Shown: positions 16,366 through 54,543, counted from the stretch's first letter. The stretch is DNA of 64,000 bases from an uncultured Acidimicrobiia bacterium (GCA_963825765.1 CAWGUU010000018.1:16401-80400), one strand, 5' to 3'. The notes: a model not told the origin generated them from the letters alone. Made by a program: numbers and translations.

Positions 16366-16561
16366 CGCAGGGAGCGTCACAAGTTGGCGGCTCCTACGTT
16401 CACAAGATGTGCGGCCGAAGGGGCGGCCGCCACGTCGTCGTTGGTTTCGGGTCGCGCAGGGACCCTCCTGGGTCGCCAGGAGGGGTCTCGTCGATCCACG
16501 GGGTCGCGGATAACCCGCCTGCCGGCGGGACAGGCGTCGGGCGTCGCCGCCGCTCTTGGAT

Positions 16562-18172
16562 TCAGTCGGCCTGCGGCAGGATCTCGCTCAGCCCGCCGGT
16601 ACGGCGCCTGGCCCGCGGCCGCCTCGTCTTCGGACGGACGGTAAGGCCGTGCGGATCGGGCAGACCGTGCTTGGCTCGATAGGCGACGAGGGTCAGCAGG
16701 TTGGCGGCGACATGGGTGAACGTCAGCAGCAGGTTGTAGTTGACCAGGCCGAGAGAGCGGATGTAGTTCCGCCCGACCCTGCCGTAGTGGACCTTGACGG
16801 ACGCGTTGGCGCTCTCGACGCCCACCCGACGGTTCTTCGACTCAACCCAGGTGCTGGTGCCATAGAGGTACTTCTGTCGGTCTCGCAGTCCCGCAGTTGC
16901 CGGGATCTGCACCGTCACCTGGTTGCAGCACGGCCGGAGGGCTTCGGCTGCCTGAGGCGGTGGAGCAACGGTGGGATTGCTGATCGGCCGGCGAAGCGAG
17001 GGCGGCACCAGCTCGCAACGGCTGTGTCCGCCACGCTGAGCGAGGCAGGCGACCCGGATGTGTCCGTCGCCCGTCGATCGGCCCTGCTGCAGGGTCGCGG
17101 CGTAGTTGGCCCTCTCGTCGTAGCGGGCGACGAGAGCATCCCGCTCGCTCTGGCGCATCCCCGGCTTCACGGGCGGAAGGTCCCAGAGGTCCTTCGGCGT
17201 CCCCGGGCAGAACTGCCCCCCGTCGAGCACCAGGAAGCCCCGCACGTCGGGCTGGGGGTCTCGCTGCCAGCTCATCAGGTCATGGGTGCGGTCCACTCCC
17301 ATCGCTTCGAGGGGAGCGGCGAACTTGTCGACGACGGAGATGGAATAGCCCCGGTCGGCGATGAGGTGCTCGACGGCGATGCCGTCGCCGATGGTGTCCC
17401 GGACCAGGTCCACCGCCGTCTGTCCCCGGTGGGTGCCGGCCGAGGTGACGCGATGGCGCCGGATGAGCAAGGGCACCTCGGGACCGCCCATGTTCCGGGT
17501 CTGGACCAGGAGGTGGTCCTCGTAGCCGAAGTAGGTCCCGCCCCGGCGTCCGTTCTTGGCCGGGCTGTGGCCCTCTCGGGCGTCGTCATCGAGCGTCGAT
17601 CGTGTCCGTTCGCCGTCGGCGTTGGCGCCGGTCTCCACCCGGGCCCACGTCTCCACGTCGGTGCCGTCGACGCTGTAGCAGTCGCTGAGGGCGATGTCCG
17701 CCGGTGTGGTGGCGTCGAGGAGCCTGTCGGTGAACCAGCTCACGGCGTCCCCGTGCGGCGCGGACCCGTCGAGCACGGTAGGTGCCAGCTCGCCCAGCGC
17801 GTGGCGGAGGCGATGCCAGCAGTGCCAGACCTGTCGGTAGGTGACCACGTGGCCCCCGACCTCGACCTCGAGCTCGTGGCGAAGCGGCTCGGGCAGAGCC
17901 CGCAGCAGACGTGCCACCTGGGTGAGATGGTTGTCGCGCTTGAGGCCGGCGTTCATGACCAGGCCGACGAGCAGGGCCTGCAACCGGAGCTGGCAGTCGG
18001 GCCCGGGGTGGTCGTCCAGGTGAGCTTGGAGCGCCTCGAGCTGACCGAACCGGCCGATGCAGTCGATGGCGACGCGGGCCATCTGGTCCACGGTGAGATC
18101 CATCGCCCGGCGGTCGTCGGGACCGGGCCGCTTCGGCGAGGTCGGGGCCGTGCCTGTCTGAGCGGCGCTCAT
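16562..18172 (-). CDS. DDE transposase, IS4 family-like (about 537 aa)
   Basis: candidate D (SVDGTDVETW), D (HLIADRGYS) and YREK-like R-x3-E-x6-K (NRRVGVESANASVK) signature; ATG at 18172 overlaps upstream ORF stop (ATGA). Confidence 0.55.
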   Translation of the reverse strand: MSAAQTGTAPTSPKRPGPDDRRAMDLTVDQMARVAIDCIGRFGQLEALQAHLDDHPGPDCQLRLQALLVGLVMNAGLKRDNHLTQVARLLRALPEPLRHELEVEVGGHVVTYRQVWHCWHRLRHALGELAPTVLDGSAPHGDAVSWFTDRLLDATTPADIALSDCYSVDGTDVETWARVETGANADGERTRSTLDDDAREGHSPAKNGRRGGTYFGYEDHLLVQTRNMGGPEVPLLIRRHRVTSAGTHRGQTAVDLVRDTIGDGIAVEHLIADRGYSISVVDKFAAPLEAMGVDRTHDLMSWQRDPQPDVRGFLVLDGGQFCPGTPKDLWDLPPVKPGMRQSERDALVARYDERANYAATLQQGRSTGDGHIRVACLAQRGGHSRCELVPPSLRRPISNPTVAPPPQAAEALRPCCNQVTVQIPATAGLRDRQKYLYGTSTWVESKNRRVGVESANASVKVHYGRVGRNYIRSLGLVNYNLLLTFTHVAANLLTLVAYRAKHGLPDPHGLTVRPKTRRPRARRRTGGLSEILPQAD

Positions 18173-18765
18173 GCGGCACCTCCCCTGAGGAGCGTCCGGG
18201 CGAGCTCCGGGTCCACCGCCGGCAGGAGCCGGATGATCTCGGTCAGGCCGCAGGCGGTGCGCAACCCGGCGGCAGGCAGGAGTACGGCCAGCGGGGTGCC
18301 CACGGCCAGGTGGTGGAGAAGCCACGTGGACCGCAATCGTCCGAGCGACAGGCGCACCCCGTCCGTCGGGTGCCCCAGCTGGAAGACGAGCGTGTTCACC
18401 GCCGTCCGTGACCCGATGATCCGTCCCTCGCCCACCCTGCGGGCGGCGGCGGCCAGTCGCTCCTCGTACGCGGCCAGGCACACGACGGATCGGTCCGGGT
18501 TCTGGGCCCGGACGGACACGCCGTGTTCGGAGACGACCACGTCGGTCCCGAGCACGTCGGACACCCACCGGCCGTCGATGCCGCACCCGAGCCCGATGGC
18601 CATGAGGGCCTCGAACAGGTGACGGCGAATGGCGGTGCCCTGGCCGCGGGCGGCAGCCTCCAACCGGTCCAGCTCCCACGGCGAGTAGGGCGGCTGGGGG
18701 CCGGATGGGGCCGTCGCCACCTCGACTCCGTCGGCGACGGGGCCGGCTGGCGCGACGACGCTCAT
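18169..18765 (-). CDS. hypothetical protein translationally coupled to transposase (IS orfA?)
   Basis: 198 aa, non-repetitive composition, stop overlaps transposase ATG. Confidence 0.35.
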   Translation of the reverse strand: MSVVAPAGPVADGVEVATAPSGPQPPYSPWELDRLEAAARGQGTAIRRHLFEALMAIGLGCGIDGRWVSDVLGTDVVVSEHGVSVRAQNPDRSVVCLAAYEERLAAAARRVGEGRIIGSRTAVNTLVFQLGHPTDGVRLSLGRLRSTWLLHHLAVGTPLAVLLPAAGLRTACGLTEIIRLLPAVDPELARTLLRGGAA

Positions 18766-18845
18766 CCCCGGCTCGACGATGAGGCCGGCATCGACACCGA
18801 CGAGCAGCGGCCTCGACCGCTCCGTCGCTGGGCGTCCCCGTTGGC

Positions 18846-19279
18846 GTGCAGCCTTACGCCGCGAGGCGGGCCGAGGCGGTGCCGCCCGCGGCCAGGCTCA
18901 CCGGGGTCCGCACCGGTCGCCAGGAGGGCTACGACCGAATCGTTTTCGACTTCTCGGGGGCCCTCGCCGGGTCCGAGTCAGTGGAGTACGTCGCCCGGGT
19001 GACCCAGGACGGGTCGGGCGAGCCGGTGCCGTTGAGCGGCCAGGCATTCCTGAAGGTCGCGTTCTCGGTGGCCGAAGCCCATGATGGCAGCGGAGCCCTC
19101 AGCATCCCCCAGGGAAGGCGTTTCGACCCGAGGCTCACGACCGTCAAGGAAGTCGCCCTCGCCGGGGACTTCGAGGGCTACGTGAGCTTCGGCCTCGGAC
19201 TGGCGGTATGGTCGGCTTTCGCGTCTTCGAGCTGTCGAACCCTTCACGGGTCGTCGTCGACGTCGCCCACCCGTCCTAA
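18846..19279 (+). CDS. hypothetical exported-type protein, apparent frameshift near 19190-19200 and missing N-terminus
   Basis: ...GDFEGYVSFGLGLA then, in +2 frame, GFRVFELSNPSRVVVDVAHPS*; no signal peptide at N-terminus, consistent with 5' truncation by the adjacent IS. Confidence 0.35.
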
Positions 19280-19302
19280 GTCCCGTGCCCGCCGGAGCCC
19301 CA

Positions 19303-20343
19303 TCACCCGGTTCGGCCAGACTCGCGGCGGCCGCGCCCGCCGATCTTGCGCCGGCCGGGCCCGCCGGAGTGGTGACGGGCCGGCGCCTCCGAGCCGCCGA
19401 CAGCTCGACCGGGCAACGTCACGACGGCCGAGGTGGGTCCCGGAAGCTCGTCGTCGGAGCGATGGCCCCGGCGTCGACGGGCGATGAGGAACGCGGCGAC
19501 GACCAGCAAACCGGCGCCGGCAGCCAGAACCGGTCCGTTGCCCAGGCCGTCGACCCAGCGGGTGACAGAGCCCGACCACCGCCCGACGGCGTCGACGGGA
19601 CCGCTCGGGACGCTGCGGCCCTGCGCGAGGCGGATGTCGTAGTACCCATAATATGCGACGTAGGCGCCGGCGATGGCGAGCAGGGCTCCAGCCGCCTTCT
19701 GCACATGGGGCAGCACCCGGCGAAGTCGTCTGACCAGAGCCCCCTGAGCCAGGGCGACGGCCACTGTGAGTGTGCCCAGCACCATGGCCATGCCGGCCGT
19801 GTAGGCCCCGAATGCGGCGAGCCCCGACGCGGCGTCGGCCTGCTCGAAGGTGGACGCGACCGCCACCAGAAACGCCGGTATCGTGCACGACAGCGACACC
19901 GTGGCATAGGAGGCGCCGAAGCCCGCCATGGCGGCGAGTCCCCGATCGTTGCCGGCAATGCCGAGGCGCCCGGACCGGGCCAGGCGGGGGAGGGCGATCT
20001 TGGGCTGCCAGCCGCGGGCCATGGCCACGCCCATCGGCACGAGGGCCAGCCCGATCGCGATCGAGAGCCAGGGCGTGAAGCGCTGCACCGTGATCGACAG
20101 CTGGGTGATGGCGAAACCGGCGATGCCGAACACGAAGGCGAAGCCAACCGAGACGGCCGCCGCCACCCGCAGCGCACTGGCCACCCTGACTGCCCCACCA
20201 CCGCCTGCGGCACCGCCGACGATGTCGTCGTCGTCGGTGCCGAGGAAATAGGACAGGTAGGCCGGGAGGAGCGCGAACCCGCACGGGTTGAAGGCGGCGA
20301 CGACGCCGGCTGCGAACGCGAAGCCGATCGGGGCGTCGAGCAC
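19303..20343 (-). CDS. ccdA: cytochrome c-type biogenesis protein CcdA (DsbD transmembrane domain)
   Basis: AAFNPCGFALLPAYLSYF motif with the conserved Cys; 6-TM profile. Confidence 0.85.
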   Translation of the reverse strand: MLDAPIGFAFAAGVVAAFNPCGFALLPAYLSYFLGTDDDDIVGGAAGGGGAVRVASALRVAAAVSVGFAFVFGIAGFAITQLSITVQRFTPWLSIAIGLALVPMGVAMARGWQPKIALPRLARSGRLGIAGNDRGLAAMAGFGASYATVSLSCTIPAFLVAVASTFEQADAASGLAAFGAYTAGMAMVLGTLTVAVALAQGALVRRLRRVLPHVQKAAGALLAIAGAYVAYYGYYDIRLAQGRSVPSGPVDAVGRWSGSVTRWVDGLGNGPVLAAGAGLLVVAAFLIARRRRGHRSDDELPGPTSAVVTLPGRAVGGSEAPARHHSGGPGRRKIGGRGRRESGRTG

Positions 20344-20352
20344 GCCGCGGGT

Positions 20353-20952
20353 TCAGGCCACGCCGGCGGCGGCGAGGATCTCGTCGGGCTGGAAGTCCCG
20401 GAACCAGGTGCCAGCGACCTGGCCGTCGGCTCCGAGCACGATGACGGCGGGCTGGTTCGTGATCCCGTAATGGACCCAGGACCGGCCGCTCGGGTCCCAC
20501 ACCATCGTCAGACCTGCAGTCCGGGTCTCGTTGAGGAAACCGTGGGCCTGGTCGAGGGAGTCCTGGGCCCCGAGGCCGAGGATGTCGAGATCGCCGCCGT
20601 GCTTCGCTGCGAACTCGAGCAGCTCCGGGGCCTCGGCCCGGCAGAACGTGCAATGCGGTGCCCAGAACCACAGCAGCGCCGGCCGGCCCGGGGTCGCCAA
20701 CGACCGCAGGCCGACCGTCGAACCAGAGGCGAGCAGGACCACATCGACCGACGGCACGTCGGGTGCCGACTGCGAGGTGGACGCCCCGGGCTCCGTGGGC
20801 GCGGCCGGGGCGGCCGGGGCCTTCGCACTGTTCGGGCCCGACCGTTTACCCGCTGACCCATTCCCGTTCCCGGCACCGCAGCCTGCGTGGGCAATCATGA
20901 CCACGAGCACGAGCGCGGCGGCCTTGCCGCCCCGGAGGATCCGATCAATCAT
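20353..20952 (-). CDS. TlpA/ResA-like thiol-disulfide oxidoreductase lipoprotein
   Basis: lipobox AHAGC, thioredoxin fold with WAPHCTFC CxxC; adjacent to ccdA. Confidence 0.8.
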   Translation of the reverse strand: MIDRILRGGKAAALVLVVMIAHAGCGAGNGNGSAGKRSGPNSAKAPAAPAAPTEPGASTSQSAPDVPSVDVVLLASGSTVGLRSLATPGRPALLWFWAPHCTFCRAEAPELLEFAAKHGGDLDILGLGAQDSLDQAHGFLNETRTAGLTMVWDPSGRSWVHYGITNQPAVIVLGADGQVAGTWFRDFQPDEILAAAGVA

Positions 20953-21432
20953 CGTCCCAACGTAGAACGGGACCGCAAGCCCCGGACGTCGCGCCTGCCT
21001 CGACTACGTGGGCGGCCCGTGAGCCGTTGCACGCCCCCGCGATCGCAGAGCGCGCCTGGAGTCCCCGAAGTTCTACGTCTATCGCCAGGAGGTATTGAGC
21101 TTCCTCGCCCAACGCCGACGCGGCGTAGGTCATCGCCGGGTCGGCCTCGGCGGCACCGCGCGTACGCCCCTCCGGTGGTCGGCGCCCCCCGCAGATCACA
21201 GATAACAGTCCGGTTACGAACTCCATCGGCGGCGGTGTTCGTTGTCGTGCGGGGTAGGAGTGCCCTTGGATCCCCACTGCTCCGTTCGGGTTACGGTGGT
21301 CGCCATCGAGCATCTGCCAACGGGCTTGTATCAATGAATTCCGCGCGCGGCGGCGCGGCCCGTCGCCGGCCCCGGCTCCGGCAGAACGACCGAGCGGTCG
21401 GCGCCTCCAGTGGGGTAAGCCAAAAATCGGGG

Positions 21433-22512
21433 TTGGCCCCCCGGCTGTGGCCGGTCGCCCTTTTCCTGACAGTCCTCCTCGCCTGCGGCGGGGGTGAACC
21501 CAGCGAGGTGGCGGGCCCGACCACCACCAACCTGCCGCCGGCCTCGACCACCACCCAGCCGGGGATGGGGCTGACCCAGGAGTGCGTCACCGAGGCGGCC
21601 GGGTACCGGGTCCGGTATCCAGCCACCTGGTTCTCCAACGATCCCAGCCAGTCCGCCGAGTGCCGGTTCTTCCACCCCGAGCCGTTCGACGTGCCCCCGA
21701 ACACCGAGGCGACCGGATTCGCCATCGCCCTCAACGTCGAGCCCACCCCCTTCGCCGAACTTGCGTTGGGGCCCGAAGGGTCCGTGGCCTCGGAGGTGCA
21801 GGCGAGAGCAGAGACCACGGTGGCCGGGAGGATGGCGGTGCGGGCCGAGATCACCTCGACGGGCGAGGGCTTGCTCCCGTCCGGGGCCAAAGGGGTCGTC
21901 TACTTCGTGGACTTCGGCGGGTCGACCTTCCTCGGTCGGACCTATGGGTCGCCGAGCGCAGGCACGCTTGCCTCCAACACCCAGGTGCTCGACCAGATGA
22001 TGGGCACGCTCGCTCGGATCGAACTACCTTCACCACAGTGCTCCGCCAGCGGTGAGTCGCCAGCCGAGCTGCTTCAGGATCGTCTTCCCGCCGCCGTGAC
22101 CACCACCCGGGGCGAGATCATCGAGGCTGCGGTGGCATGCGACTACGACGGCCTGGCGGAGATCGCCCTTCGGGGCGATGCTCTCTTCACGTACAGCTTC
22201 GGCGGCGGCGACGATCCGGCCGGGTCATGGAGACAGGACGAGGCCGCCGGTCGGCCGGTGCTCCGAACCCTCGTCCGATTGATGAACACACCGTTCGCAT
22301 CCCGTGAGGTCACTGACGGCACGCAGTATGTGTGGCCGTCGGCCTTCGGGTACGAGCGCTGGCAGGATGTCCCCGCGTCGGAGCGAGAGGTCCTACGGCC
22401 CATCTACGACGACGACGACTTCCAGGGCTTCGATGCCTTCGGGAGCTACGTCGGCTATCGCGTCGGCATCACCGACACCGGGGACTGGGTCTTTTTCGTC
22501 GGCGGCGACTGA
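21433..22512 (+). CDS. lipoprotein, function unknown
   Basis: TTG start gives ideal lipoprotein signal (M)APRLWPVALFLTVLLAC; alternative ATG at 21334; Thr/Pro-rich linker. Confidence 0.55.
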   Translation: MAPRLWPVALFLTVLLACGGGEPSEVAGPTTTNLPPASTTTQPGMGLTQECVTEAAGYRVRYPATWFSNDPSQSAECRFFHPEPFDVPPNTEATGFAIALNVEPTPFAELALGPEGSVASEVQARAETTVAGRMAVRAEITSTGEGLLPSGAKGVVYFVDFGGSTFLGRTYGSPSAGTLASNTQVLDQMMGTLARIELPSPQCSASGESPAELLQDRLPAAVTTTRGEIIEAAVACDYDGLAEIALRGDALFTYSFGGGDDPAGSWRQDEAAGRPVLRTLVRLMNTPFASREVTDGTQYVWPSAFGYERWQDVPASEREVLRPIYDDDDFQGFDAFGSYVGYRVGITDTGDWVFFVGGD

Positions 22513-22588
22513 CGCGGACGACCGTCCGTCGGCGAACTGACACGGCTCCGCAATCGGACTGACGCATAGTGAGCGGATACTGCGAGCC

Positions 22589-22912
22589 ATGCAAGATCAC
22601 GATCCCGTCAACGACCGTGCGCGCCTGCGGGTCGGCATGCAGGGCGATGCGATGGTCATCGCGGCCCAGGGTGTCCTCGACGAGGCCGCGGTGGGCACCA
22701 TCGGCTCCGCCGCCGCCTGCGCGCTCAACTGCCAGTGTCGCCGCGTGCGCGTGGATCTCGGCAACGTGACAGGCCACACGGAGGGTGGAGCGCGAGCGTT
22801 CGCCGATCTTCTGGCCCGCCTTCCCGCCAGCGCTGCGGGCCGAGTGACCTACCACGCCAACTCGGAGGCGGCCCAAAACGTCCTGGTCGCCGCCTACGCC
22901 CGACTCGGCTGA
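22589..22912 (+). CDS. STAS-domain protein (anti-sigma factor antagonist-like)
   Basis: ARLRVGMQGDAMVIAAQGVLDEAAVGTIGSAAA...RVRVDLGNVT pattern. Confidence 0.5.
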   Translation: MQDHDPVNDRARLRVGMQGDAMVIAAQGVLDEAAVGTIGSAAACALNCQCRRVRVDLGNVTGHTEGGARAFADLLARLPASAAGRVTYHANSEAAQNVLVAAYARLG

Positions 22913-22928
22913 GCCATCATGTCCCCTC

Positions 22929-23609
22929 ATGGGGGCCCACATCCTGCTGGTCGAGGACGACAGGCGCATCCGGACCTCGCTGCGACTGGTCCTCGAAGAC
23001 GAAGGCAACACGGTCGACGAAGCCGAAAGCGCCGAGGTTGCCCTCGAGATGCTCGGTCGTCGGGCGGTCGAGGTGGCGATCGTCGACCTCATGCTTCCGG
23101 GCATGGACGGCTTCGAGCTGTGCCGCCGGCTGCGGGCGTCCTTCGACATCCCGATCCTGATCCTCACCGCTCGCTCCGACAGCCACGACGTGGTGGCCGG
23201 CCTCGAGGCCGGCGCCGACGACTACATGGTGAAGCCGGCCGTGCCCAAGGAGTTGTCGGCACGGGTGCGGGCTTTGTTGCGGCGCTCGGCGCGTTCGGGC
23301 TCCGAACCGCAGCGCCTCGCCTTCGGCGATCTCGAGATCCAGCCCGACGCGGGGGTCGTGCGACGCGGCGGGGCGGAGGTCTCACTCACCAAGACCGAGT
23401 TCGGTCTCCTGTGTGAGCTGGCGCAGGCGCCAGGGCGGATCCTGACCAGGGAGATCCTGCTCGGGAAGGTCTGGGGCTACGACTACTTCGGAGACGGGCG
23501 GCTGGTCGACGTCCACATCCGGAGGCTCCGCACGAAGGTGGAGGCCGATCCCGCGCACCCCCGCCACATCGTGACGGTCCGGGGCCTGGGCTACAAGCTG
23601 GAGCCTTGA
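22929..23609 (+). CDS. mtrA: OmpR-family response regulator (MtrA-like)
   Basis: receiver (ILLVEDD...DLMLPGMDGFELCRRLR...ADDYMVKP) plus winged-helix (VRGLGYKLEP). Confidence 0.85.
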   Translation: MGAHILLVEDDRRIRTSLRLVLEDEGNTVDEAESAEVALEMLGRRAVEVAIVDLMLPGMDGFELCRRLRASFDIPILILTARSDSHDVVAGLEAGADDYMVKPAVPKELSARVRALLRRSARSGSEPQRLAFGDLEIQPDAGVVRRGGAEVSLTKTEFGLLCELAQAPGRILTREILLGKVWGYDYFGDGRLVDVHIRRLRTKVEADPAHPRHIVTVRGLGYKLEP

Positions 23610-25005
23610 CGGCACCGTCGAACGAAGGCCGCCAACCGGCCGTGACCGTCAGCCGGATCGGCCTGCGCACCCGGGTCACAGTGGCCTTCGCCCTGGGAGC
23701 GCTGTTCCTGTCGATCGGCCTCGCCGGCATCACCTACCAGCTCTCGCGCACCTACCTGCTTCGTCAGCGGGAGACTTCGGTGCTCCGCCAAACCTATGCC
23801 AATGCCCGGCTGGTCAAGAGCGCCCTCCGGTCGCCCGAGCCGGACATCCCCCGGCTGCTGGCGTCCGTCGAGCTGCCGGCCGGCTCCAACGCCATCCTGC
23901 TCCACGAGGGAGTCTGGTTCGGCGCGTCCGTCGCCATCGGGTCCGAGGCCATCCCGGCCGACCTGCGAACGACCGTGATCGCAGGGGAAGCGGCCCGCCA
24001 GAAGTTCACGCAGGACGCAGTGCCGCGGTTCGTCGTCGGGATCCCCCTGCCCGCGGTGGATGGCGCCTATTTCGAGGTGTTCGCCTTGTCCGACCTCGAC
24101 CGCACCCTGGCGGTGCTGCGCAACTCGATCGCGGTCGCCGCCGTCGCCACGGCCCTTGCGGGTGCGGCGGTGGGGCGGTGGGCGAGCCGGCGGGTGCTGG
24201 CGCCGGTGGCCGACGTCTCCGCGGCCGCCGCGGCCGTCGCCGCAGGCCGACTGGATGTCCGCCTCGACGAGCGGGGGACGCGGACCTGTCGAGCATGGCC
24301 GTCTCTTTCAACCGCATGACCGACGCCCTCCAGGCGCGGATCCAGCGAGAGGCCCGTTTCGCCTCCGACGTCAGCCATGAGCTCCGGTCGCCGCTGACGA
24401 CCCTCGCCGCCGCGCTGAAGGTGGTCACCACTCGGCGGGACGAGATGCCTGAACGAGCACGGCAGGGCCTCGACCTGCTGTCGGAGGAGGTGGGGCGGTT
24501 CGGCCAGCTCGTCGAAGACCTCCTCGAGATCTCGAGGATCGACGCCGGCGTGGCCGAGCTGGCCCTCGAAGAGGTGGTGCTGGCCGAGTTCGTGCTCCAC
24601 GCCCTGCGCGCCGGCGGAGCCGGGATCGTGCCCGTGGAGATCGAGGGACCGGCGAGCGGCGCCGTCGTACAGGCCGACAAGCGCCGTCTCGAGCGGGTCG
24701 TGGCCAACCTCGTCGACAACGCCCGACGGTACGGCAACGGTGTGACCCGGGTGAGCGTGGAGCTCGGGGGAGCGTGGGTGCGCCTGGCCGTGGAGGATGC
24801 GGGTCCTGGCGTCGCCGTCGACGAGCGGGGACGGATATTCGAGAGGTTTGCTCGCGGGGCGGCGGGACGGCGCGCGGAGAGCGACGGGACGGGGCTCGGG
24901 CTCGCTCTCGTCCACGAGCACGTCCGGCTCCACGGCGGCCGGGTCCGGGTCGAGGAGCGAGCCGGGGGCGGCGCCCGCTTCGTCGTCGAGCTCCCGGCCG
25001 TCTGA
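23606..25005 (+). pseudogene. mtrB: sensor histidine kinase (MtrB-like) interrupted by -1 frameshift in G5 run at 24273..24277 (possibly a sequencing error)
   Basis: N-terminal TM/sensor part ends ...RLDVRLDERG in one frame; HAMP/HisKA/HATPase (SFNRMTDAL..SHELRSPL..GTGLGLALV) continue in next frame; overlaps mtrA stop. Confidence 0.75.
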
Positions 25006-45344: not shown

Positions 45345-45475
45345 TTATCCCGACCTCGGGGGGCATGCCCGCTCACCAGCGGGGCCCCCCGCCGACTGGG
45401 CCGACGCGGCGCGGGCCCGAGCCACGTCGGGATAATCGCGAGGTCGGGATAAGTCCAGTTACTCCGAAATCGGGG

Positions 45476-46513: not shown

Positions 46514-47477
46514 GTGGATCACCTCCACTGTTCAACGAGGTTTCAAGGCACCGCTTACATTGTACTCCTCGGGGTGCAGTTTTCAACGAAAGATTCTTTT
46601 TTCGGCCTCGGCGATGGCACGCATCGAATTGCCAGTCCACTCCGCCCCCAGCATCCTCAGCCGGCGCCAAGGGGGTGAGTGTTCACGTACTATCGGAGAT
46701 GGGTTCTCCGCACAATCTGACTCTAGACATGGGACCTCTAGACATGGGACGAGGCCAATTGTTGTGCCGCCGATCCGAATATCTGCAGCACATACGACGT
46801 TCTCCTCCGGCGTCAGCAGCCGCTTGCGCCGCGCCGGCCCCTAACCCTCGGCCATGTGGAGCCTCCCTCTCGTCGGGCTCGGGCACCGTAGAAGATGCGG
46901 AGTGTTCAACCGCGGCTGCGAACACTGAGTCAAACGCAAACCACATCCGCGCGTTCGCTGACTTCAATCGGTGCGTCCCCTTTTCGGGTGGTGGACTGGT
47001 TCGCCCCCGCCACCGTCATCCGCCAGAGGGCGCAGGTGATGGATCAGGTCATCGAGGGGGGGACTTTGGTTGGCCACGGGTGGGGACGTTCGCATGGCCA
47101 CGGACAGGCGTCGCCCCTTCGGACGAGAGCCAGGGTCGGGCCCCGCTCAGTATTGAGCGATCGCCTGAATCAGGCCTGTATCTCTACCCTCCTCGACCGG
47201 GGGTCCCCTCGCCCCGAGAACTGCGGGACGGTGAGCGAGTCCAGGTCGCCCGAGCCAGTGACATAGGCGCGTCCGCCGCGGCTGACGACGGGCAGATCGA
47301 GGTGGCTGAAGCCGGCACCCGAGGGAGGATGGCAGTCCGAGTCCACGGCGGGCGGCCGTGGCCGGGTCGTGAGGCAGGTGGTGGTTCGGCCGACCGAGCG
47401 CGCCTCCCCGGCAAGGCGAGAACCGCGTGCCGCGCCGTCCGCCCACAAGAGTCGCTGACCGTGCCCCGGACATGACG

Positions 47478-48068
47478 TTAGGACCCGAGCGCGAGCTCGG
47501 CCTTGCTGAGCTGCTGGGCAGCCTCGGCCAGCACGTGACCGAGGAGCTCGGTGATGATCAGTACCATCCCGTGCCGGACGCTCGCGGGAAGCCAGTCGTC
47601 AACCGCGCGACCCTCCGCCACCCGGGCCAGGCGCTCGGACTCCGCCGCGAGCACGGAGATCATCTCGTCGGGATCCCAGCGGTGGTAGCCGGCGATCGGC
47701 TCGCTCAGATGGCAGCGCGTCTCGACGGGACGAACATCGCGGGACAGGCGCTCCAAGTGGTCGGCCGTTGCGTGGACGAGATCCCGGACGCATATGAGGC
47801 GTTCGATGGCGGTCGGGGACCCCGGGGCGTGCCGTCGGCAGCTTCGTTCCCTTCTGGTCCCGTCGATGAGCCGCTCGCCCAGCAGGTCCCGGAAGTCTTC
47901 GGGCAAGGAGCGGACGAGCTCGACGACGTTGCTCATGGCGACTCGGTCCGCCTCGAACGCGACCGAACCCTTCTCGCCCGCCGAGGGCGGCCAGAGGTTT
48001 TGACCGACCCACCAGCGCGGCGATCCAGCCGAAGCACCAGCCGTCCCCGGGGAGTGCTCGACGGTCAT
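47478..48068 (-). CDS. hypothetical protein, possibly DinB/MDMPI-like
   Basis: more protein-like than the fully overlapping plus-strand ORF; weak family resemblance only. Confidence 0.3.
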   Translation of the reverse strand: MTVEHSPGTAGASAGSPRWWVGQNLWPPSAGEKGSVAFEADRVAMSNVVELVRSLPEDFRDLLGERLIDGTRRERSCRRHAPGSPTAIERLICVRDLVHATADHLERLSRDVRPVETRCHLSEPIAGYHRWDPDEMISVLAAESERLARVAEGRAVDDWLPASVRHGMVLIITELLGHVLAEAAQQLSKAELALGS

Positions 48069-48364
48069 GGGTGGGCCGAGAGATCAACGACCGAGTCGCT
48101 CCCGCCGTACTCGTTCGGCTGGTAGCCGTCAAACGCCTCGTCGTTGAACCACCTGCCGCCCTCGGCCAGGTAGCGGAACGCGTAACGCCTCGCGGCCTCG
48201 ACGGTGACCGACGCCGTGCGCTGGTCGCGGTGCTTGCGCAGCGACGTGGCCGTGGGGTCCCATCCTGTTGAAATCTCCAACCACGGCGACCGGGCCGTCG
48301 ATCCCGTTCTCGCCCACGATGAACACCTTGACGTGGTCGCTGCCCCTTTTGGGCTCGCAGCGGA

Positions 48365-48877
48365 TCATGGCTCGTCTCGTTGGTCGGCGAGGTACCTATT
48401 GCTCCCGGCCGGGTGAGCGGAGATCGACCGCCGCTCTGCAGGGGTCCGCTCTCCGGCCGATGGAAGGGACCGTCCCCGAAACGGTGTGGAGCGTCCGGTG
48501 ACGCGGACAGCGGGGGCCAAGCCGGTCGCATCCAAGCCTCGGTGCACGGCATCGCAGGGGTCGGCGAGGATCAACTCGCCGCCCCGGGTGGAGGCCGAAG
48601 TTGCCGCGCCCCGGAAGACGGCCCAGCCACCCTCCTCCACCCGGGTCAGGTCTAGAAGATCGACCACGACCCTCAGGTTCCCTTGGTTCTCGATCAGGTC
48701 TTCCAGCACGTGTTCGAGCTGGGCACATCCGGAGGTGTCCAGCGTGCCGTGGACCGTCACGACCACGAGGCCAGGAGCGCGGCCGACGGAGAACCGGAAG
48801 GCCGACGGCGGGGTCGTGGGGGCTACTCGGGGGCTGGGCGGCGGGCGGTGTCCGTCGGACGGGGCCGCGGCCGACAT
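48365..48877 (-). CDS. STAS-domain protein (anti-sigma factor antagonist-like)
   Basis: LVVVTVHGTLDTSGCAQLEHVLEDLIENQGNLRVVVDLLDLTRVEEGGWAVF...; start/stop uncertain. Confidence 0.45.
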   Translation of the reverse strand: MSAAAPSDGHRPPPSPRVAPTTPPSAFRFSVGRAPGLVVVTVHGTLDTSGCAQLEHVLEDLIENQGNLRVVVDLLDLTRVEEGGWAVFRGAATSASTRGGELILADPCDAVHRGLDATGLAPAVRVTGRSTPFRGRSLPSAGERTPAERRSISAHPAGSNRYLADQRDEP

Positions 48878-49520
48878 CGAGTCGTGACTCACCTTCCCGG
48901 GACCCGCGCGGCCCGAGCTGCCAGTCCACGACGAAGTCGGATGCTTCAGCGGGCGCCACCTTGACGGCCAGGCGTGCCAGGTGGCCAGCCGGGATCGGGG
49001 CGCGCCGGCTGCGGGGCGCGGCTGCCACTCGGCACGAGGGCGACGGCTTGGGCGGAGCGGGCCTGTAACCCAGTTGTGTTGACATTCGCTTCCCTCCACG
49101 TCATGGCTGTGGAGGCCCGGCCCCAGCCAGGAAGAGCGGGGCCTCTCCGGCGACGAGCTGGTCAGCTCCTTCCGGGCGTCGGAACAGTTGTCTTCGCGAT
49201 GCGCGGCGCTGGCGCCACCACCCGTGGCGTAGCGGGCGGCAAACGCCGTTCGAGGCGACGACGCCGACGTGCTTCCGAGACGGCCCACATGGCGAGATGC
49301 ATCTGCCGATCGCCGCGCATTGGAACCACCCTTCCGTCCGCTGATCTGGATGCTGAAACTCGTTGCCGACGCGCCAACCCGATGCGTCCGCGACTCAGAC
49401 CTTTTCACTCAGAAGGGGCGGCCAGCTAGGCGGATGTCTACGGGAAACTGCTCAGTACGACTACGGGGGCGCCCGACACTCTTAGGCGACTCAACCCCAC
49501 TAGCACGCGGTGGCTACGGC

Positions 49521-50171
49521 CTACTGCTCTTGGGGAACGATGCCCCGGCGGACCGCGTAGATTGCGAGCTCGACGGGGGTCCGCAGGCCCAGCTTCTTCA
49601 TCGCATGCGCTCGGTGCGTCTCCACGGTCCGCCGACTGATGAACAACTGTGCGCCGATGGCGGCGTTCGTGTGGCCCTGCGCCACGAGTTGCAGGACCTC
49701 CCGCTCGCGGTCGGTGAGGGTGTCGTAGGGGTCGGGGGGTTCCCCGGCGCGGCGAGAGTACGCCTCCAGGGCACGCTCCGACAGCGGTGGGCTGAGGTAG
49801 CGGCGTCCGGCGGCCACTTCCCGGATGGCCCGTCCCAGCTCCGCCGCGTCCGCCTGCTTGAGGGCGTAGCCCGAAACGCCCCTTCGCAGTGCCTCGAGCA
49901 CGTAGGCCTCGCTCTGGTGCATGGACAAGATGAGAACGCGAGTCGCCGGCGAGCGCTCAGCCAGCTCCGGGGTGACGTCGAGGCCGCTCCTCGCACCCAT
50001 CATAAGATCGAGCACCACGACATCGGGATGGAGTTGGCCAGCCAGCGTGGCCACGTCATCGCCGTTATCGGCCTGGCCCACCACCTCGAAGTCGGGGTCG
50101 GAGTCCAGCAGGGCCCGGAGACCCTCTCGTACCACCGGGTGGTCGTCGGCGAGGACGAGCCTGAGTGTCAT
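49521..50171 (-). CDS. NarL/FixJ (LuxR)-family response regulator
   Basis: receiver LVLADDHPVVREGL...VVLDLMM + HTH REREVLQLVAQGHTNAAIGAQLFISRRTVETH. Confidence 0.9.
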   Translation of the reverse strand: MTLRLVLADDHPVVREGLRALLDSDPDFEVVGQADNGDDVATLAGQLHPDVVVLDLMMGARSGLDVTPELAERSPATRVLILSMHQSEAYVLEALRRGVSGYALKQADAAELGRAIREVAAGRRYLSPPLSERALEAYSRRAGEPPDPYDTLTDREREVLQLVAQGHTNAAIGAQLFISRRTVETHRAHAMKKLGLRTPVELAIYAVRRGIVPQEQ

Positions 50172-52813
50172 GGAATCACACTCGGACGCTCGCTAAGCGG
50201 AAACTGGGCGATCACCCAGGTGCCGCCGCCGAGTTCGGAGCGCAACCGAAACTGGCCCCCGGTCGCGCGGGCTCGCTCCTCCATCCCGACCAGGCCGCTG
50301 CTCTGCCCGGGCCGGAGGGCGTCAACCTCGAAGCCGACGCCTTCGTCGCTCACTTCGATGCGCAGTGAGTCTTCGCTCAGGGCACAGCCGACCGTGGCCA
50401 GGCTGACCCCGGCGTGGCGGGCGACGTTGGTGAGCCCCTCCTGCACGATCCGGAAGGCGGCCGTCTCGACCTCTGGCCGGAGGCGCCGGTCCAGCCCCGG
50501 AGCCTTGAAGGCCACCTCCACCCCCGTCTGGGCGGTATACCGCTCCACGAGCCACAGAAGGGCTGGTCGAAGGCCCAGGTCGTCGAGCATGGCGGGACGG
50601 AGGTCGAGGGAAAGATCCTGCACCCGGCGCAGGAGCTCGCCCACCAGGGCTCGCGCCAGGCCCAGTCGATCTGCCACCGCCTCCGGGGAAAGGCGCACGT
50701 GGTTCTCCAGCGCGAGCTTGAGACCAGTGAGAGTCTGGCCGATCTCGTCATGCAGCTCGTGGGCGATGCGCCGCCGCTCGCCCTCCTGAGCGTCCACCGC
50801 TGCCCTCGAGTGGGTCTCGAGGCGCTGGCGCAGCCGGCGCTCCTCGTCGTGGGCGGACCGAAGGGCCTTTTCCACCTCGGCGCGGCCGATCACCTCGGCC
50901 AGGGTGTTGGCGGCGGCATGGAGGAAGTGGGCGTCATCGACGTTGAAGCGTCGTCGCCTGCTCGCGTAAGCACCCAGAACCCCCCACGGAGCGGCCCGCC
51001 CCATGATGACGACACTCATCCCGCTCACCACCCCGTGGTCGACCAGCAGCGGCGGGGCCCCGAAGCGGGTCTCCCGGGCGAGGTCCTCCACCACCACTGG
51101 GGCGTCGCAGGCCAGGGTGAAGCCGGCCTGGGACCCCAGCCCGGCCGCGACCGTGGCCTGGCCCACCAGTCCCTCCTCCCACCCCACCCCCGCCCGCAGG
51201 AGCAAGACGTCATCTTCCGGCAGCAGCTCGAGGACCTCGGCGTACTCCACGTCGAGGGTGCGGGCGACGGCGTCGACGGCGGCATCCATAAGAGAAGAGA
51301 GATCGGGGTCGGCCAGCGCCCGGCGACCGAGCTCGGCCACGACAGCCTGCTGGTGGGCCCGAGTGGCGAGCTCGGCCTCGACCCGACCACGGGCTACGGC
51401 GTCGGCCACCACGTTGGCCACCGCCCGCAGGAAATGGATGTCGTCGAGTCCGAAGCTCCGGTGGCGCGTGGTGTCGGCGCCGAGCACGCCGTAGGGCTCG
51501 TCATCGCTGCGGATGAGTACGGTCATGCCGGCGACCACCCCGTGGTCGACCAGCAGCGGCGGGGCCCCGAAGCGGGTCTCCCGGGCGAGGTCCTCCACCA
51601 CCACTGGGGCGTCGCAGGCCAGGGTGAAGCCGGCCTGGGACCCCAGCCCGGCCGCGACCGTGGCCTGGCCCACCAGTCCCTCCTCCCACCCCACCCCCGC
51701 CCGCAGGAGCAAGACGTCATCTTCCGGCAGCAGCTCGAGGACCTCGGCGTACTCCACGTCGAGGGTGCGGGCGACGGCGTCGACGGCGGCATCCATAAGA
51801 GAAGAGAGATCGGGGTCGGCCAGCGCCCGGCGACCGAGCTCGGCCACGACAGCCTGCTGGTGGGCCCGAGTGGCGAGCTCGGCCTCGACCCGACCACGGG
51901 CTACGGCGTCGGCCACCACGTTGGCCACCGCCCGCAGGAAATGGATGTCGTCGAGTCCGAAGCTCCGGTGGCGCGTGGTGTCGGCGCCGAGCACGCCGTA
52001 GGGCTCGTCATCGCTGCGGATGAGTACGGTCATGCCGGCGACCACCCCGTGGTCGACCAGCAGCGGCGGGGCCCCGAAGCGGGTCTCCCGGGCGAGGTCC
52101 TCCACCACCACTGGGGCGTCGCAGGCCAGGGTGAAGCCGGCCTGGGACCCCAGCCCGGCCGCGACCGTGGCCTGGCCCACCAGTCCCTCCTCCCACCCCA
52201 CCCCCGCCCGCAGGAGCAAGACGTCATCTTCCGGCAGCAGCTCGAGGACCTCGGCGTACTCCACGTCGAGGGTGCGGGCGACGGCGTCGACGGCGGCATC
52301 CATAAGAGAAGAGAGATCGGGGTCGGCCAGCGCCCGGCGACCGACCTCGGCCACGACAGCCTGCTGGTGGGCCCGAGTGGCGAGCTCGGCCTTGACCCGC
52401 TTGAGCTCGATGAGATCTCGGAATGTTGCGACGATCTCGGCCGGACCCTCGCCGGCGACGAGCTGAGCGCTGACCTCTACCGGGACGCGATGCCCATCCC
52501 TGTGTACAAGGTCGCACTCGTAGTGTCGTGGCACCTCCTCGCCGGCGAGGCGGCGCCTGGCCCGGTCGGCGATGAGATCCCGGGAGTCTGGGGTGACGAG
52601 ATCGGCGAACGGTCTCACTGTCAAGACCTCCTTGACGGAATAGCCGATCAGAGAGCCGAACGCCTCGTTGACAAGCAGCGCGCGCTCGGGATTGCCGACA
52701 ACCAGGCCCACCCCCAGATCGCCCAACACCTGAGGAAGACTCCTGTACCAAGGGCGATCCTCCTCAGGCGGCCCGGCCATTCCGGTCATGGCCAGCTCGG
52801 GTGCCATGGGCAC
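50168..52813 (-). CDS. sensor histidine kinase, PAS-GAF-GAF-GAF-HisKA_3-HATPase_c
   Basis: HELHDEIGQTLTGL H-box (HisKA_3), GLTNVARHA/ELGGGTWV ATPase; tandem near-identical 169-aa GAF units; stop overlaps response regulator start. Confidence 0.85.
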   Translation of the reverse strand: MPMAPELAMTGMAGPPEEDRPWYRSLPQVLGDLGVGLVVGNPERALLVNEAFGSLIGYSVKEVLTVRPFADLVTPDSRDLIADRARRRLAGEEVPRHYECDLVHRDGHRVPVEVSAQLVAGEGPAEIVATFRDLIELKRVKAELATRAHQQAVVAEVGRRALADPDLSSLMDAAVDAVARTLDVEYAEVLELLPEDDVLLLRAGVGWEEGLVGQATVAAGLGSQAGFTLACDAPVVVEDLARETRFGAPPLLVDHGVVAGMTVLIRSDDEPYGVLGADTTRHRSFGLDDIHFLRAVANVVADAVARGRVEAELATRAHQQAVVAELGRRALADPDLSSLMDAAVDAVARTLDVEYAEVLELLPEDDVLLLRAGVGWEEGLVGQATVAAGLGSQAGFTLACDAPVVVEDLARETRFGAPPLLVDHGVVAGMTVLIRSDDEPYGVLGADTTRHRSFGLDDIHFLRAVANVVADAVARGRVEAELATRAHQQAVVAELGRRALADPDLSSLMDAAVDAVARTLDVEYAEVLELLPEDDVLLLRAGVGWEEGLVGQATVAAGLGSQAGFTLACDAPVVVEDLARETRFGAPPLLVDHGVVSGMSVVIMGRAAPWGVLGAYASRRRRFNVDDAHFLHAAANTLAEVIGRAEVEKALRSAHDEERRLRQRLETHSRAAVDAQEGERRRIAHELHDEIGQTLTGLKLALENHVRLSPEAVADRLGLARALVGELLRRVQDLSLDLRPAMLDDLGLRPALLWLVERYTAQTGVEVAFKAPGLDRRLRPEVETAAFRIVQEGLTNVARHAGVSLATVGCALSEDSLRIEVSDEGVGFEVDALRPGQSSGLVGMEERARATGGQFRLRSELGGGTWVIAQFPLSERPSVIP
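51030..52340 (-). repeat. 507-bp tandem repeats inside the kinase gene: two perfect copies (51030..51536, 51537..52043) plus about 290 bp of a third, then diverged copies
   Basis: identical nucleotide strings read directly; matching identical shadow ORFs at 507-bp spacing in the six-frame track. Confidence 0.85.
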
Positions 52814-52860: not shown

Positions 52861-53892
52861 CTATGGAAACACCGGGCGCCCGCTACCGTGTCGCAGCGAG
52901 TGGGCCGTGAGCTCGTCGGGCAGCCCGGCCGCCCTGCGGTAGAGCGCGAAACGCGCGCTGAGATGGTGGACGGACATCCGGGCGCCACGCTCCGTGAGCC
53001 ACATGGCCGGGTGGCAGTCCTGTCCGTAGGTGGGGCGGACAACGGTGAGGTACTCGTCGACCACCTCGACCGCCCAAGGCATCACCGTGGCCACATTGCG
53101 GCGGCGTGGCGGGCCACCCCGCATGGCCTTGCCGTAGCGAACGAGCAGCATCCCGTAACGGCCGAGCTCGGGTGCGGCCGCGTTGGTGGAAAAATCCCCG
53201 ATGTCGAGCATCACCGCCTCTCGCCGGCGCAGTCCCCAGGCGTAGATCACCTTGAAGAGGACGGCGTCTCGGAAGGCGGGGAGCCACCCCTTGCGGCCCA
53301 GGCTCCGAATCTTCGCCACCCGCTCGGCGGCGTACTCGTAGAAGGCGATGAGCTCCTCCCGGCTGAACGGGCGTCGCCCGGGACCTCCTTCGTAGTCGGC
53401 CACGTGGTCGGCGGTGTTCCACTCGTGGCATATCTGGACCGGGTGCTCGCCGAAGCGCTCCTCGCATTCTGGGCCCCATCGGTAGCGGGCGTCGGTGACG
53501 TAGGACATGAACAGCCCGAGGACGATCTGGTAGTTGCGGACCGTCGAATGGGCTCGCTTGTCCGACATCAACGAGCTGCTCCACGCCTCGACGTCCTCAG
53601 GGCCCCACCTCCACGGGTAGTCGTTCGTGAAGCGCTGGGACCGCCGGACATGCCCTCGCGGCCGCCGATCGTGGTTGCGGTCAGCAGCCGGCTCTGCTGC
53701 TGGGTGCGCCACCCGGCGAATGGCATCGAACACAGCAGTCTCGGGGTGAAGGAGAATGGCTCCTCGCACGAGGGCCAGATGCGCGGCTCCGGGCGTCTCG
53801 GAACGCTGTCCCATCCACCCCTCCGGCCAGGTCGCTAGATGCAACCGCGTTGCATCCAACGCAACCTTGGAGGAAAAGGCCAGGTAGATCAA
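52861..53892 (-). pseudogene. tyrosine-type site-specific integrase, 3'-truncated (ends 8 codons after HxxR box; catalytic Tyr region absent)
   Basis: RRREAVMLDIGDF and LTAHSLRHG motifs; no continuation in any frame; truncation point abuts kinase start. Confidence 0.6.
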
Positions 53893-54006
53893 GCCCTTCG
53901 TCGGCCTTCCGGGCCTGCTCTCCGTCCAGAGTGGCTTGTTCCCTGGCCTGCGCCGGAGCGTTCTAAGGGTGCCGAATGATGCGCCAGATGCAATTCGGCC
54001 TGCTTC

Positions 54007-54513
54007 TCAGAGGAGGCGCTGCATCACGACGACGTCGAGCCAGCGGCCGAACTTGCGGCCGACCTCCCTTTCGACGCCGACGAGGTCGAAGCCGCACTTC
54101 TGGTGCAGCGCGATGGAGGCCTCGTGGCCGTCGACGATGCGCCCCATCACCGCGTGGAACCCGTGGACGGTCGCCAGGCGTAACAGCTCGGTGAGCAGCT
54201 CCCGCCCGTACCCGAGGCCCTGGCGGTCCCGTCGGACGTAGAGGGAATCCTCCACCGTGGTGGCGTACGCGGGGCGGGGCCGGTACGGGCCGAGGGACCC
54301 GAAGGCGACCACGACACCGTCCTCGGTCACGACGATGGCGGGGTGGGCTCCGGCGTGCTCCCTGAGCCATTCCTCCTGGGCGTCGAGGGTCCGGGGCACC
54401 ATGTCGAAGGTCACGGTCGAGCCCGATACCTCGACGTTGTAGATGTCCCGGATGGCGTCGGCGTCGGCGACAGTCGCCAGCCGGATCTCCGCCGCGGATC
54501 GGCTGACTATCAT
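54007..54513 (-). CDS. GNAT-family N-acetyltransferase (PAT-like)
   Basis: RRDRQGLGYGRELLTELL acetyl-CoA-binding motif. Confidence 0.8.
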   Translation of the reverse strand: MIVSRSAAEIRLATVADADAIRDIYNVEVSGSTVTFDMVPRTLDAQEEWLREHAGAHPAIVVTEDGVVVAFGSLGPYRPRPAYATTVEDSLYVRRDRQGLGYGRELLTELLRLATVHGFHAVMGRIVDGHEASIALHQKCGFDLVGVEREVGRKFGRWLDVVVMQRLL

Positions 54514-54543
54514 CGAAGGTGGAGTCGCATCGGCGAAGGAATC

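Follow-up and report, generated by a model that had tools for sequence, protein, structure and literature searches.

A probable horizontally exchanged, mosaic genomic island between tRNA-Tyr and tRNA-Thr in an uncultured Acidimicrobiia bacterium

In the 64,000-nucleotide stretch of DNA analysed here (hereafter the window; GCA_963825765.1, CAWGUU010000018.1:16401-80400), from an uncultured Acidimicrobiia bacterium, the tRNA-Tyr and tRNA-Thr genes are separated by 38,177 nt, a gap that a first-pass annotation of the sequence had proposed as a candidate genomic island or rearrangement hotspot. Our analysis indicates that this gap probably harbours a horizontally exchanged genomic island, built in several steps within a spacer that ancestrally held little beyond one GNAT acetyltransferase gene. 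The 38-kb content is not ancestral to the locus, since related species have the site empty, reduced or differently filled, and four conditions of this one chromosomal site have been recorded: an empty one, a reduced one and two with different fillings. The island is a composite of four or more blocks that meet at truncated genes and differ in their distribution among relatives, and one of its versions has clearly moved between species. It is linked to tRNA-Tyr, decayed and patchwork, and now appears immobile.

The comparison of the site among relatives provides the first line of evidence. The order yajQ, tRNA-Tyr, spacer, tRNA-Thr, tRNA-Met, tuf, rpmG is kept in 29 Acidimicrobiia relatives with both tRNA ends on one contig, and the spacer measures 0.56-8.0 kb in all but one of them (28 of 29). 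The first-pass annotation had suggested aligning the region to relatives, and had named a lineage lacking the tRNA-Tyr to tRNA-Thr synteny, or relatives sharing the same 38 kb, as findings that would speak against an insertion. In relatives the two tRNA genes turned out to be neighbours across a short spacer, the synteny is shared, and the closest sites are empty. For comparison loci fetched with yajQ from species-representative genomes and metagenomes of the Acidimicrobiia (YajQ identity at most 84% in all), tRNA scans gave a spacer of 0.8-8.0 kb in 23 cases and of more than 5-10 kb in a few others. Nucleotide homology of these loci to the window ends at 16369, 3 nt past tRNA-Tyr, and restarts at 54003-54007. 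The GNAT gene occupies the spacers of 17 relatives, and the remaining content consists of ordinary genes common only to near relatives, mostly with a third-position GC content (GC3) of 0.93-0.97; no recurrent integrase or transposase was seen in the spacers of these loci. A tblastn search with called open reading frames (ORFs), adopted after tblastx of the spacers against the window was dropped for its GC-rich noise, found no island genes in the spacers of about 30 GTDB and JGI relatives except for one inverted NhaA gene in L098.

Closer relatives were picked up as metagenome contigs encoding an identical L33 protein. In the core flanks they show 84-91% identity to the window and so stand closer to it than any species-representative genome. 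Among species whose site lies on a single contig, the four closest (L167-L170) are essentially empty, with 558-1657 nt between the tRNAs. In L167 (558 nt) window position 16376 is joined to 54007 across 8 nt; L168 and L169 (1244 and 1254 nt) have about 630 nt of unrelated DNA between window-homologous flanks, and L170 (1657 nt) has about 1.1 kb. The site is reduced in L172, where a spacer of 3952 nt carries a CsoR-ATPase pair 92.8% identical to that of the window together with small scraps of the blocks described below as modules A and C. It is occupied on two contigs. One of these, contig_25583 (L165/L166), comes from another sample and an independent assembly; it is 99% identical to window positions 44.0-64.0 kb and reproduces the right junction of the island. 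The other, contig_7351, carries a different version of the island in a different host.

This second contig (284 kb), reached through a 95%-identical homologue of the ORF adjoining tRNA-Tyr and extended with two further proteins, belongs to a more distant relative and has a Tyr-to-Thr spacer of 37,429 nt. The spacer begins with an IS4-like ORF pair, ccdA and thioredoxin genes, a response regulator, histidine kinase and Germane gene set, STAS, MFS, NhaA, YkuD, NfeD-Band7 and SpoIIE; it continues with TetR-ABC-ABC2, CsoR-ATPase-cupredoxin-GDSL, a fatty acid desaturase, BacA, a Cu-oxidase, CopCD, an NTP-transferase, STAS and GNAT. About 24 kb of it matches the window at high identity. In the shared blocks (16.4-33.67 and 38.88-42.64 kb) identity reaches 89-99% in nearly every 500-nt window, whereas the core flanks of the same genome pair average about 81% and range over 66-91% per 500 nt (GNAT, 75% amino acid identity). 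Discordance with the core was assessed by sequence identity, and the island exceeds the core by 15-18 points, which argues for horizontal exchange and not inheritance. The jump in identity, from 66-84% to 91-98%, falls exactly at the 3' end of tRNA-Tyr: the tRNA-Tyr of contig_7351 has a T-arm with the variants of its own lineage and is of the window type from GGCCCA onward. Compared with L081 and L083, contig_7351 carries a 29-kb insertion starting directly after tRNA-Tyr, and its segment from the Cu-oxidase to GNAT is the ancestral spacer of its lineage. Such a pattern is hard to explain except by a block moving horizontally between species into the same site.

These comparisons also bear on two other explanations. 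The 38-kb block might be ancestral and have been deleted in most relatives; in L172 the remaining scraps of the two modules A and C keep their order, and the L167 site, with 8 nt between window-homologous flanks, looks like a clean deletion. Yet the excess of island over core identity, the discordant distributions of the modules and the unrelated, native-looking genes found at the site in the outgroups L001, L002 and L081 all speak against such a history, which we consider highly unlikely. Still less credible is an assembly chimera in which the island of another population was wrongly joined to the core. The metagenome assemblies stem from one project in which related populations co-occur, but contig_25583 reproduces the right-hand 20 kb, junction included, from another sample, and contig_7351 independently shows the same left junction.

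The island spans about 16.37 or 16.42 kb to 54.006 kb, that is, 37.6 kb. On the left it abuts the tRNA 3' end, where homology with distant relatives stops and identity to contig_7351 jumps; relative to the empty sites of L168 and L169, which share the segment 16367-16422, homology breaks at 16422. L172 keeps only the first hairpin of this segment, which is single copy in the window, no second copies of the post-tRNA motifs being found there. On the right, the first-pass annotation had let the block run up to tRNA-Thr at 54543; it ends at 54006, and the GNAT gene that follows belongs to the ancestral locus. Genes of the island have a GC3 of 0.83-0.92, against 0.91-0.98 in the flanks, and its coding density is 0.65-0.78 against 0.86-0.94. 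Taken over the regions as wholes, GC3 amounts to 0.87-0.91 for the island and 0.93-0.95 for the flanks.

Four modules can be distinguished inside these limits (see the table), in agreement with the earlier description of the region as mosaic, decayed and the product of repeated events. Module A (16.4-33.67 kb) is common to contig_7351 and collinear with it, at 82-99% identity per 500 nt and mostly 94-99%; a 1-nt frameshift at 24273 splits its MtrB-like histidine kinase relative to contig_7351. Module B is replaced in contig_7351 by TetR-ABC-ABC2. The junction at 33674 cuts both SpoIIE and secF, and window positions 34280-38038 are 90-95% identical to a locus lying on other contigs of relatives (L163, L162), in L163 a few kb downstream of tRNA-Pro(CGG). 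Module C, with CsoR and the P-type ATPase together at 38997-41417, is 98% identical to contig_7351 and 92.8% identical to L172, whose site it fills almost alone; five 1-nt indels relative to contig_7351 lie in its cupredoxin and GDSL genes (41486-42051). Module D (42.64-54.0 kb), which apart from the window occurs in contig_25583 alone, holds all of the recombinase debris. Its histidine kinase (50168-52729, minus strand) contains three tandem copies of a 507-nt repeat (51005-52525, 97-100% identity) that triplicate a GAF domain; the repeat is also present in contig_25583 and suggests that the gene underwent a very recent internal duplication. The fragments of secF, ccdA and a response regulator, the metal resistance genes, two further two-component systems and the ORF-poor, lower-GC stretch listed by the first-pass annotation are all present. 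The response-regulator fragment at 38.2-38.9 kb was compared with the regulator adjoining tRNA-Pro in L163 and is not orthologous to it.

The mobility genes of the window are int', ritA', a split ritC and istB', to which a truncated IS4-like unit is added; its transposase ORF is intact and its partner ORF is cut. The RIT element and the istB fragment announced earlier were both recovered. The RIT trio (42933-45344) consists of three adjacent tyrosine-recombinase genes with 4-bp overlaps, as expected from the published definition (PMC3414803), and falls short of the full-length, ~3.5-kb form through ritA' and the split ritC. The IS21 copy is reduced to a 3' scrap of istB, with no istA and no complete istB present. 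Looking for an IS4-like gene across 45.3-49.5 kb, where ORFs are few, yielded the istB scrap and one STAS domain but no such gene. The XerC/D-like integrase is indeed 3'-truncated, stopping just past the HxLRH box so that the catalytic tyrosine is missing; it does not stand next to tRNA-Thr as had been stated, since the GNAT gene intervenes. No complete recombinase gene is found in the window island, where the IS4-like transposase ORF is uninterrupted within a truncated element. Pfam domains of relaxases, FtsK-like translocases, type IV secretion systems or replication proteins were absent from the called island genes, and the precomputed annotation of relatives likewise held no conjugation or replication functions. 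With every mobility function incomplete and no attachment-site (att) repeat, the island of the window looks fixed and would serve as cargo only.

How the island entered can be approached through contig_7351. There, GGCCCAC followed 6-12 nt later by GTCACAAG is found in three copies of one orientation, at 9.81 kb (the end of tRNA-Tyr), 14.09 kb and 38.78 kb, the last being about 45 nt before homology with L081 restarts; GTCACAAG occurs nowhere else in 57 kb of this contig. When the left att 50-mer is aligned to the same 57 kb, its best non-self match is the right junction, with a score of 31 against 28 for the next best; an imperfect direct repeat of ~35 nt stands at the contig_7351 junctions. 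On the strength of these repeats we infer, with moderate confidence, that the island entered by recombining at the final bases of tRNA-Tyr and that the internal and distal copies have since disappeared from the window.

A scenario can be proposed on this basis. A precursor island made of modules A and C, with CsoR/Cu-ATPase, redox, ion-transport and signalling cargo, would have entered by recombination at GGCCCAC, the last bases of tRNA-Tyr. The copy now in the window would then have been remodelled: the IS4-like element would have been shortened by a 2.2-kb deletion, TetR-ABC would have given way to 5 kb of chromosomal DNA from a locus linked to tRNA-Pro, and the right end would have been replaced by a recombinase-bearing block comprising the RIT element, the istB scrap, the GAF histidine kinase with its response regulator and the integrase.

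Homologous recombination could instead have done all of the work, as in a flexible genomic island whose blocks are swapped at conserved anchors (tRNA-Tyr, shared island genes) with neither recombinase nor transposase. The identity switch does fall inside the 83-nt tRNA, which is highly conserved, or at its end, the exchange of TetR-ABC for module B looks like an internal swap, the spacers of relatives hold ordinary genes with no recurrent integrase, and neither island copy has an intact integrase. But nothing homologous to the right junction of contig_7351, between BacA and Cu-oxidase, exists in the window lineage, which has GNAT as its right flank, and the original insertion therefore cannot have come about by homologous crossovers on both sides; the GGCCCAC...GTCACAAG repeat at that junction is a further objection. 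We regard an origin by homologous recombination only as rather unlikely.

Several observations weigh against a horizontally exchanged island that entered at tRNA-Tyr. The direct repeat of the tRNA-Tyr 3' end predicted near 53.9-54.5 kb by the first-pass annotation is absent from the whole window: patterns of 22 and 17 nt with up to 3 mismatches gave nothing beyond chance. No att-type repeat emerged either beyond chance from k-mers shared by the island ends or from local alignment of the left att 50-mer to the window, and a window-wide repeat scan returned only intragenic tandem repeats and chance matches. The proposed integration mechanism rests on the short, imperfect repeat of one relative, with its narrow difference in score. 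The window has no intact integrase, and the island of contig_7351 has no integrase at all. Bulk GC (0.69-0.73 in the island, 0.68 in the flanks) and tetranucleotides (correlation with the core of 0.96-0.97) are so close to flank values that composition alone would not have revealed the island; the composition check recommended at first pass thus separates it from its flanks by GC3 and coding density only. The scraps in L172 imply that some of the "empty" sites may be deletions and not sites that were never occupied. Finally, the close relatives are all metagenome contigs, several with evident frameshift errors or fragmented core genes, which calls for caution about single-base changes: the indels and frameshifts of the island may reflect real decay or long-read consensus and assembly errors. 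Truncations at the module junctions cannot be sequencing errors.

The gene unit closest to tRNA-Tyr merits attention of its own. Its 536-aa ORF had no Pfam or NCBIfam match above threshold on its own (E = 0.063), and no PDB sequence was matched in a profile search. A HMMER search with the protein collected about 1100 cluster representatives, and an alignment of 50 homologues (A3) revealed an invariant D169/D273/E453 triad and a Y-2-R-3-E-6-K motif; DDE_Tnp_1 is matched by 23 of the 50 and DDE_Tnp_1_6 by 24. One homologue is named a transposase by NCBI, and RefSeq labels the proteins of the family hypothetical. The earlier call of an IS4-like element is thus upheld as to the DDE/IS4 assignment, by way of the homologues and with no Pfam or NCBIfam support from the window protein itself, and the element is truncated. 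The protein is 95% identical to P0001 on contig_7351. A partner ORF of ~300 aa always precedes the transposase with a 4-nt overlap; in the window a 2.16-kb deletion at 18.7-19.26 kb, relative to contig_7351, removes the right end of the unit. A divergent gene for a small helix-turn-helix (HTH) regulator lies upstream of the pair in L180/L181 and on the Streptomyces plasmid pSCL3, and contig_7351 has in this position a 141-aa ORF with no significant Pfam match.

In every chromosomal context of this small sample, the stop codon of the transposase lies 193-218 nt from the facing tRNA 3' end: 196 nt from tRNA-Tyr in the window, an arrangement shared by contig_7351, 193 nt from tRNA-Tyr in L179 (transposase 55-56% identical to that of the window), 205 nt from tRNA-Cys in L177/L178 (31%) and 218 nt from tRNA-Pro(CGG) in L180/L181 (33%). 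Four of these contexts carry a CAGGG-N-GTCACA motif immediately after the tRNA. Hairpins around TCACAAG, just after tRNA-Tyr, are predicted to be strong in L168, L172 and L179 (z-scores -4.3 to -4.7).

A DDE transposon might drive the hot spot, a three-gene unit inserting just downstream of tRNA genes and recreating its target, while islands grow by successive insertions or as its cargo. Such a view accommodates the constant spacing beside tRNA-Tyr, tRNA-Cys and tRNA-Pro, the recurrent post-tRNA motif, the two GGCCCAC...GTCACAAG copies 4.3 kb apart that bracket the unit in contig_7351, and the hairpin still kept by L172, which lacks the unit. It has to contend with the small sample, with the pSCL3 copy, which has no adjoining tRNA, with repeats that are direct and not inverted, as is unusual for DDE elements, and with weak or ambiguous folding of the TCACAAG copies of the window and contig_7351. 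The window, contig_7351, L177 and L180 were examined for terminal inverted repeats and target duplications, and none of them gave a convincing candidate; a 13-nt inverted match in contig_7351, considered as an element terminus, was rejected as part of a palindrome. As an account of the island we judge it unlikely, and given the small sample the association of the transposase with tRNA 3' ends is a lead and not a result.

The broader suggestion that this ORF pair belongs to an undescribed family of the IS4 superfamily (regulator, ~300-aa partner and ~540-aa DDE transposase) that inserts downstream of tRNA genes and seeds islands is likewise doubtful, and is offered tentatively. Insertion would then occur in a fixed orientation ~10-100 nt downstream of tRNA genes, with Tyr, Cys and Pro seen, and each event would recreate a target made of the last bases of the tRNA and a TCACAAG-bearing hairpin. 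Successive insertions at this recreated site would have built up the tRNA-Tyr island and perhaps also the tRNA-Pro locus that supplied module B. A shallow search of the literature turned up no description of an IS4-like element specific to tRNA flanks.

Table. Coordinates of the features of the window, and of the IS4-like unit in comparison loci
Feature	Coordinates	Strand	Remarks
yajQ/DUF520	15766-16257	-	Left flank, beside tRNA-Tyr
tRNA-Tyr(GTA)	16284-16366	+	Left island anchor; ARAGORN and Rfam
Post-tRNA segment	16367-16422	+	CAGGGAGC-GTCACAAG hairpin motif, second TTCACAAG, start of GC-rich hairpin
IS4-superfamily DDE transposase, 536 aa	16562-18172	-	Module A; stop codon faces tRNA-Tyr 3' end
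Partner-ORF remnant, 198 aa (of ~300 aa)	18169-18765	-	Module A; cut by the deletion relative to contig_7351
Rest of module A	19257-33674		ccdA-like and thioredoxin-like genes; two unknown genes; OmpR-type response regulator, histidine kinase, Germane lipoprotein; STAS; MFS; NhaA; STAS remnant; YkuD L,D-transpeptidase; NfeD/Band7; SpoIIE phosphatase (Pfam)
Module B	33675-38882		secF', ccdA', radical SAM, CMD, DoxX, DUF2064, frameshifted response regulator'
secF C-terminal half	33699-34259		Module B
ccdA-like fragment	34329-34694		Module B
Response-regulator fragment	38231-38935		Frameshifted
Module C	38883-42635	+	CsoR, P1B-type ATPase (39276-41417), cupredoxin pseudogene, GDSL lipase
Decayed RIT element	42933-45464	+	ritA', ritB, frameshifted ritC, palindromic inverted repeat (45333-45464)
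ritA'	42933-43433	+	C-terminal 166 aa only, no N-terminal domain; Phage_integrase
ritB	43430-44359	+	Phage_integrase
ritC	44356-45344	+	Frameshift-split at ~44715-44769; Phage_integrase
IS21 istB 3' fragment	45503-45769	+	Last 89 codons
ORF-poor, lower-GC stretch	45770-49520		STAS-domain gene (~48361-48873, -) and unknown ORFs only; GC 0.63 at 46-47 kb
LuxR-type response regulator and PAS/3xGAF histidine kinase	49521-52729	-	
XerC/D-like tyrosine integrase, 3'-truncated	52861-53571	-	Right island end, reads inward
GNAT acetyltransferase	54007-54513	-	Ancestral spacer occupant, outside the island; stop codon at 54006/54007
tRNA-Thr(GGT)	54544-54618	+	ARAGORN and Rfam
tRNA-Met	54678-54753	+	ARAGORN and Rfam
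tuf	54775-55962		Between tRNA-Met and rpmG
tRNA-Trp	57441-57514	+	ARAGORN and Rfam
IS4-like unit, L161	7927-11611		
IS4-like unit, L177	3132-5656		
IS4-like unit, L179	1772-3311		
IS4-like unit, L180	2551-5581		HTH gene present
IS4-like unit, L182	1551-4716		HTH gene present

Genes of the window were called by GC3, on account of its ~70% GC, and then scanned with Pfam and NCBIfam. ARAGORN and Rfam agree on its four tRNA genes, each of them plus-strand, with Rfam giving no further matches, and their places are those first reported, tRNA-Tyr at 16.3 kb and tRNA-Thr with tRNA-Met at 54.5 kb. The left flank carries the nuo operon, an acetyl-CoA synthetase gene, M48 and M23 peptidase genes and yajQ/DUF520; the right flank runs tRNA-Thr, tRNA-Met, tuf, rpmG, an ECF sigma gene with its partner, tRNA-Trp, secE, nusG, rplK and rplA. 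The first-pass annotation had likened this order to that of mycobacteria: the right-hand cluster is there, and the order is not the same, tuf sitting between tRNA-Met and rpmG. In mycobacteria the order is tyrT-thrT-metT-rpmG, and E. coli has thrU-tyrU-glyT-thrT-tufB and, elsewhere in the series, secE-nusG-rplK-rplA. The lineage studied here has in common with them tRNA-Tyr near tRNA-Thr, then tuf, rpmG, tRNA-Trp, secE, nusG, rplK and rplA, and differs by GNAT between tRNA-Tyr and tRNA-Thr, by the position of tuf and by an ECF sigma/anti-sigma pair before tRNA-Trp. This ECF sigma factor and its probable anti-sigma partner (56356-57346, between rpmG and tRNA-Trp) are kept in all relatives examined and interrupt the otherwise universal tuf-rpmG-secE-nusG cluster.

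Further observations were made in the flanks and at related sites. Downstream of rplA, an ORF of ~1400 codons (59739-63992, minus strand) is 77-79% GC and internally repetitive, with many self-similar segments at 65-75% identity; the proteins encoded at this place in relatives measure 890-2250 aa and lack Pfam domains. In contig_7351 the M48 peptidase and HAD phosphatase genes are separated by a gene of 5.5 kb (1823 aa, no Pfam match; L161 14737-20208) to which only an intergenic gap of 245 nt (13422-13668) corresponds in the window. The M48 and HAD genes of L011 (1-1424) are on the opposite side of tRNA-Tyr, which points to a local rearrangement. A different CsoR-containing cluster stands in the >10-kb spacer of L010 (5065-8520), so metal-resistance cargo recurs at the site. 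A second site of variable content seems to exist 3' of tRNA-Pro(CGG) (L163 4012-12262 compared with L180 5799-9581): one relative has cyc2-ArsR-DUF2064-DoxX-CMD-radical SAM, the source of module B, and another the IS4-like unit. Within the island, the YkuD gene (29533-30633) contains a perfect 15-nt tandem repeat, ACGACGACCCCGCCC, that encodes TTTPP in ~12-13 copies (29779-30032); the repeat is 60 nt longer in contig_7351, and a similar one is found in a 425-aa spacer protein of L001.

Islands and integrative elements linked to tRNA genes are well known, among them the islands of P4-type integrases and actinomycete elements such as pSAM2 at tRNA-Pro. Like these, the present island begins at a tRNA 3' end, varies between related genomes, falls in the 10-200 kb class, brings along genes of adaptive value (metal efflux, ion transport, signalling) with recombinase and insertion-sequence remnants and, in contig_7351, repeats the tRNA end in short and imperfect form at its far junction. 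Unlike them, its window copy has no intact integrase, att repeat, replication or conjugation genes, its integrase remnant lies at the tRNA-distal end, and the insertion point, relative to the empty L168 and L169, is 56 nt past the tRNA and not inside it. Flexible genomic islands hold different cargo at one conserved locus in different lineages. The frame formed by yajQ-tRNA-Tyr and GNAT-tRNA-Thr, with 0-37 kb of unrelated content in ~30 Acidimicrobiia, resembles them, but one version is near-identical in divergent hosts and bears mobile-element debris, while most versions of the relatives look native.

The IS4-like unit shares with IS4 and IS1182-type elements the DDE triad, the Y-2-R-3-E-6-K motif and homologues matching DDE_Tnp_1 and DDE_Tnp_1_6; it departs from them by a window protein below the Pfam threshold, by the want of terminal inverted repeats, by its constant partner ORF, by the HTH gene of L180/L181 and pSCL3, and by the tRNA 3' end adjoining it in all chromosomal contexts. 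The RIT element agrees with those described (PMC3414803) in its three adjoining recombinase genes with 4-bp overlaps, in the palindrome after ritC and in its location within a genomic island, and differs by a ritA' of 166 aa, a split ritC, a length of ~2.5-2.8 kb in place of ~3.5 kb and its single copy.

The class of island to which this one belongs is well known; what is less ordinary is a transposase family that appears to track tRNA 3' ends. The locus offers a well-documented site in four states in a little-studied, uncultured actinobacterial class, and its copper-resistance, redox, Na+/H+ antiport and signalling cargo may matter for adaptation to soil. The transposase family recurring beside tRNA 3' ends is a more useful lead than the island itself. 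If the lead were true, the tRNA-linked islands considered here would be seeded by a transposase rather than an integrase; if it holds, it would add a DDE-transposon route to such islands and give a name to proteins now annotated as hypothetical.

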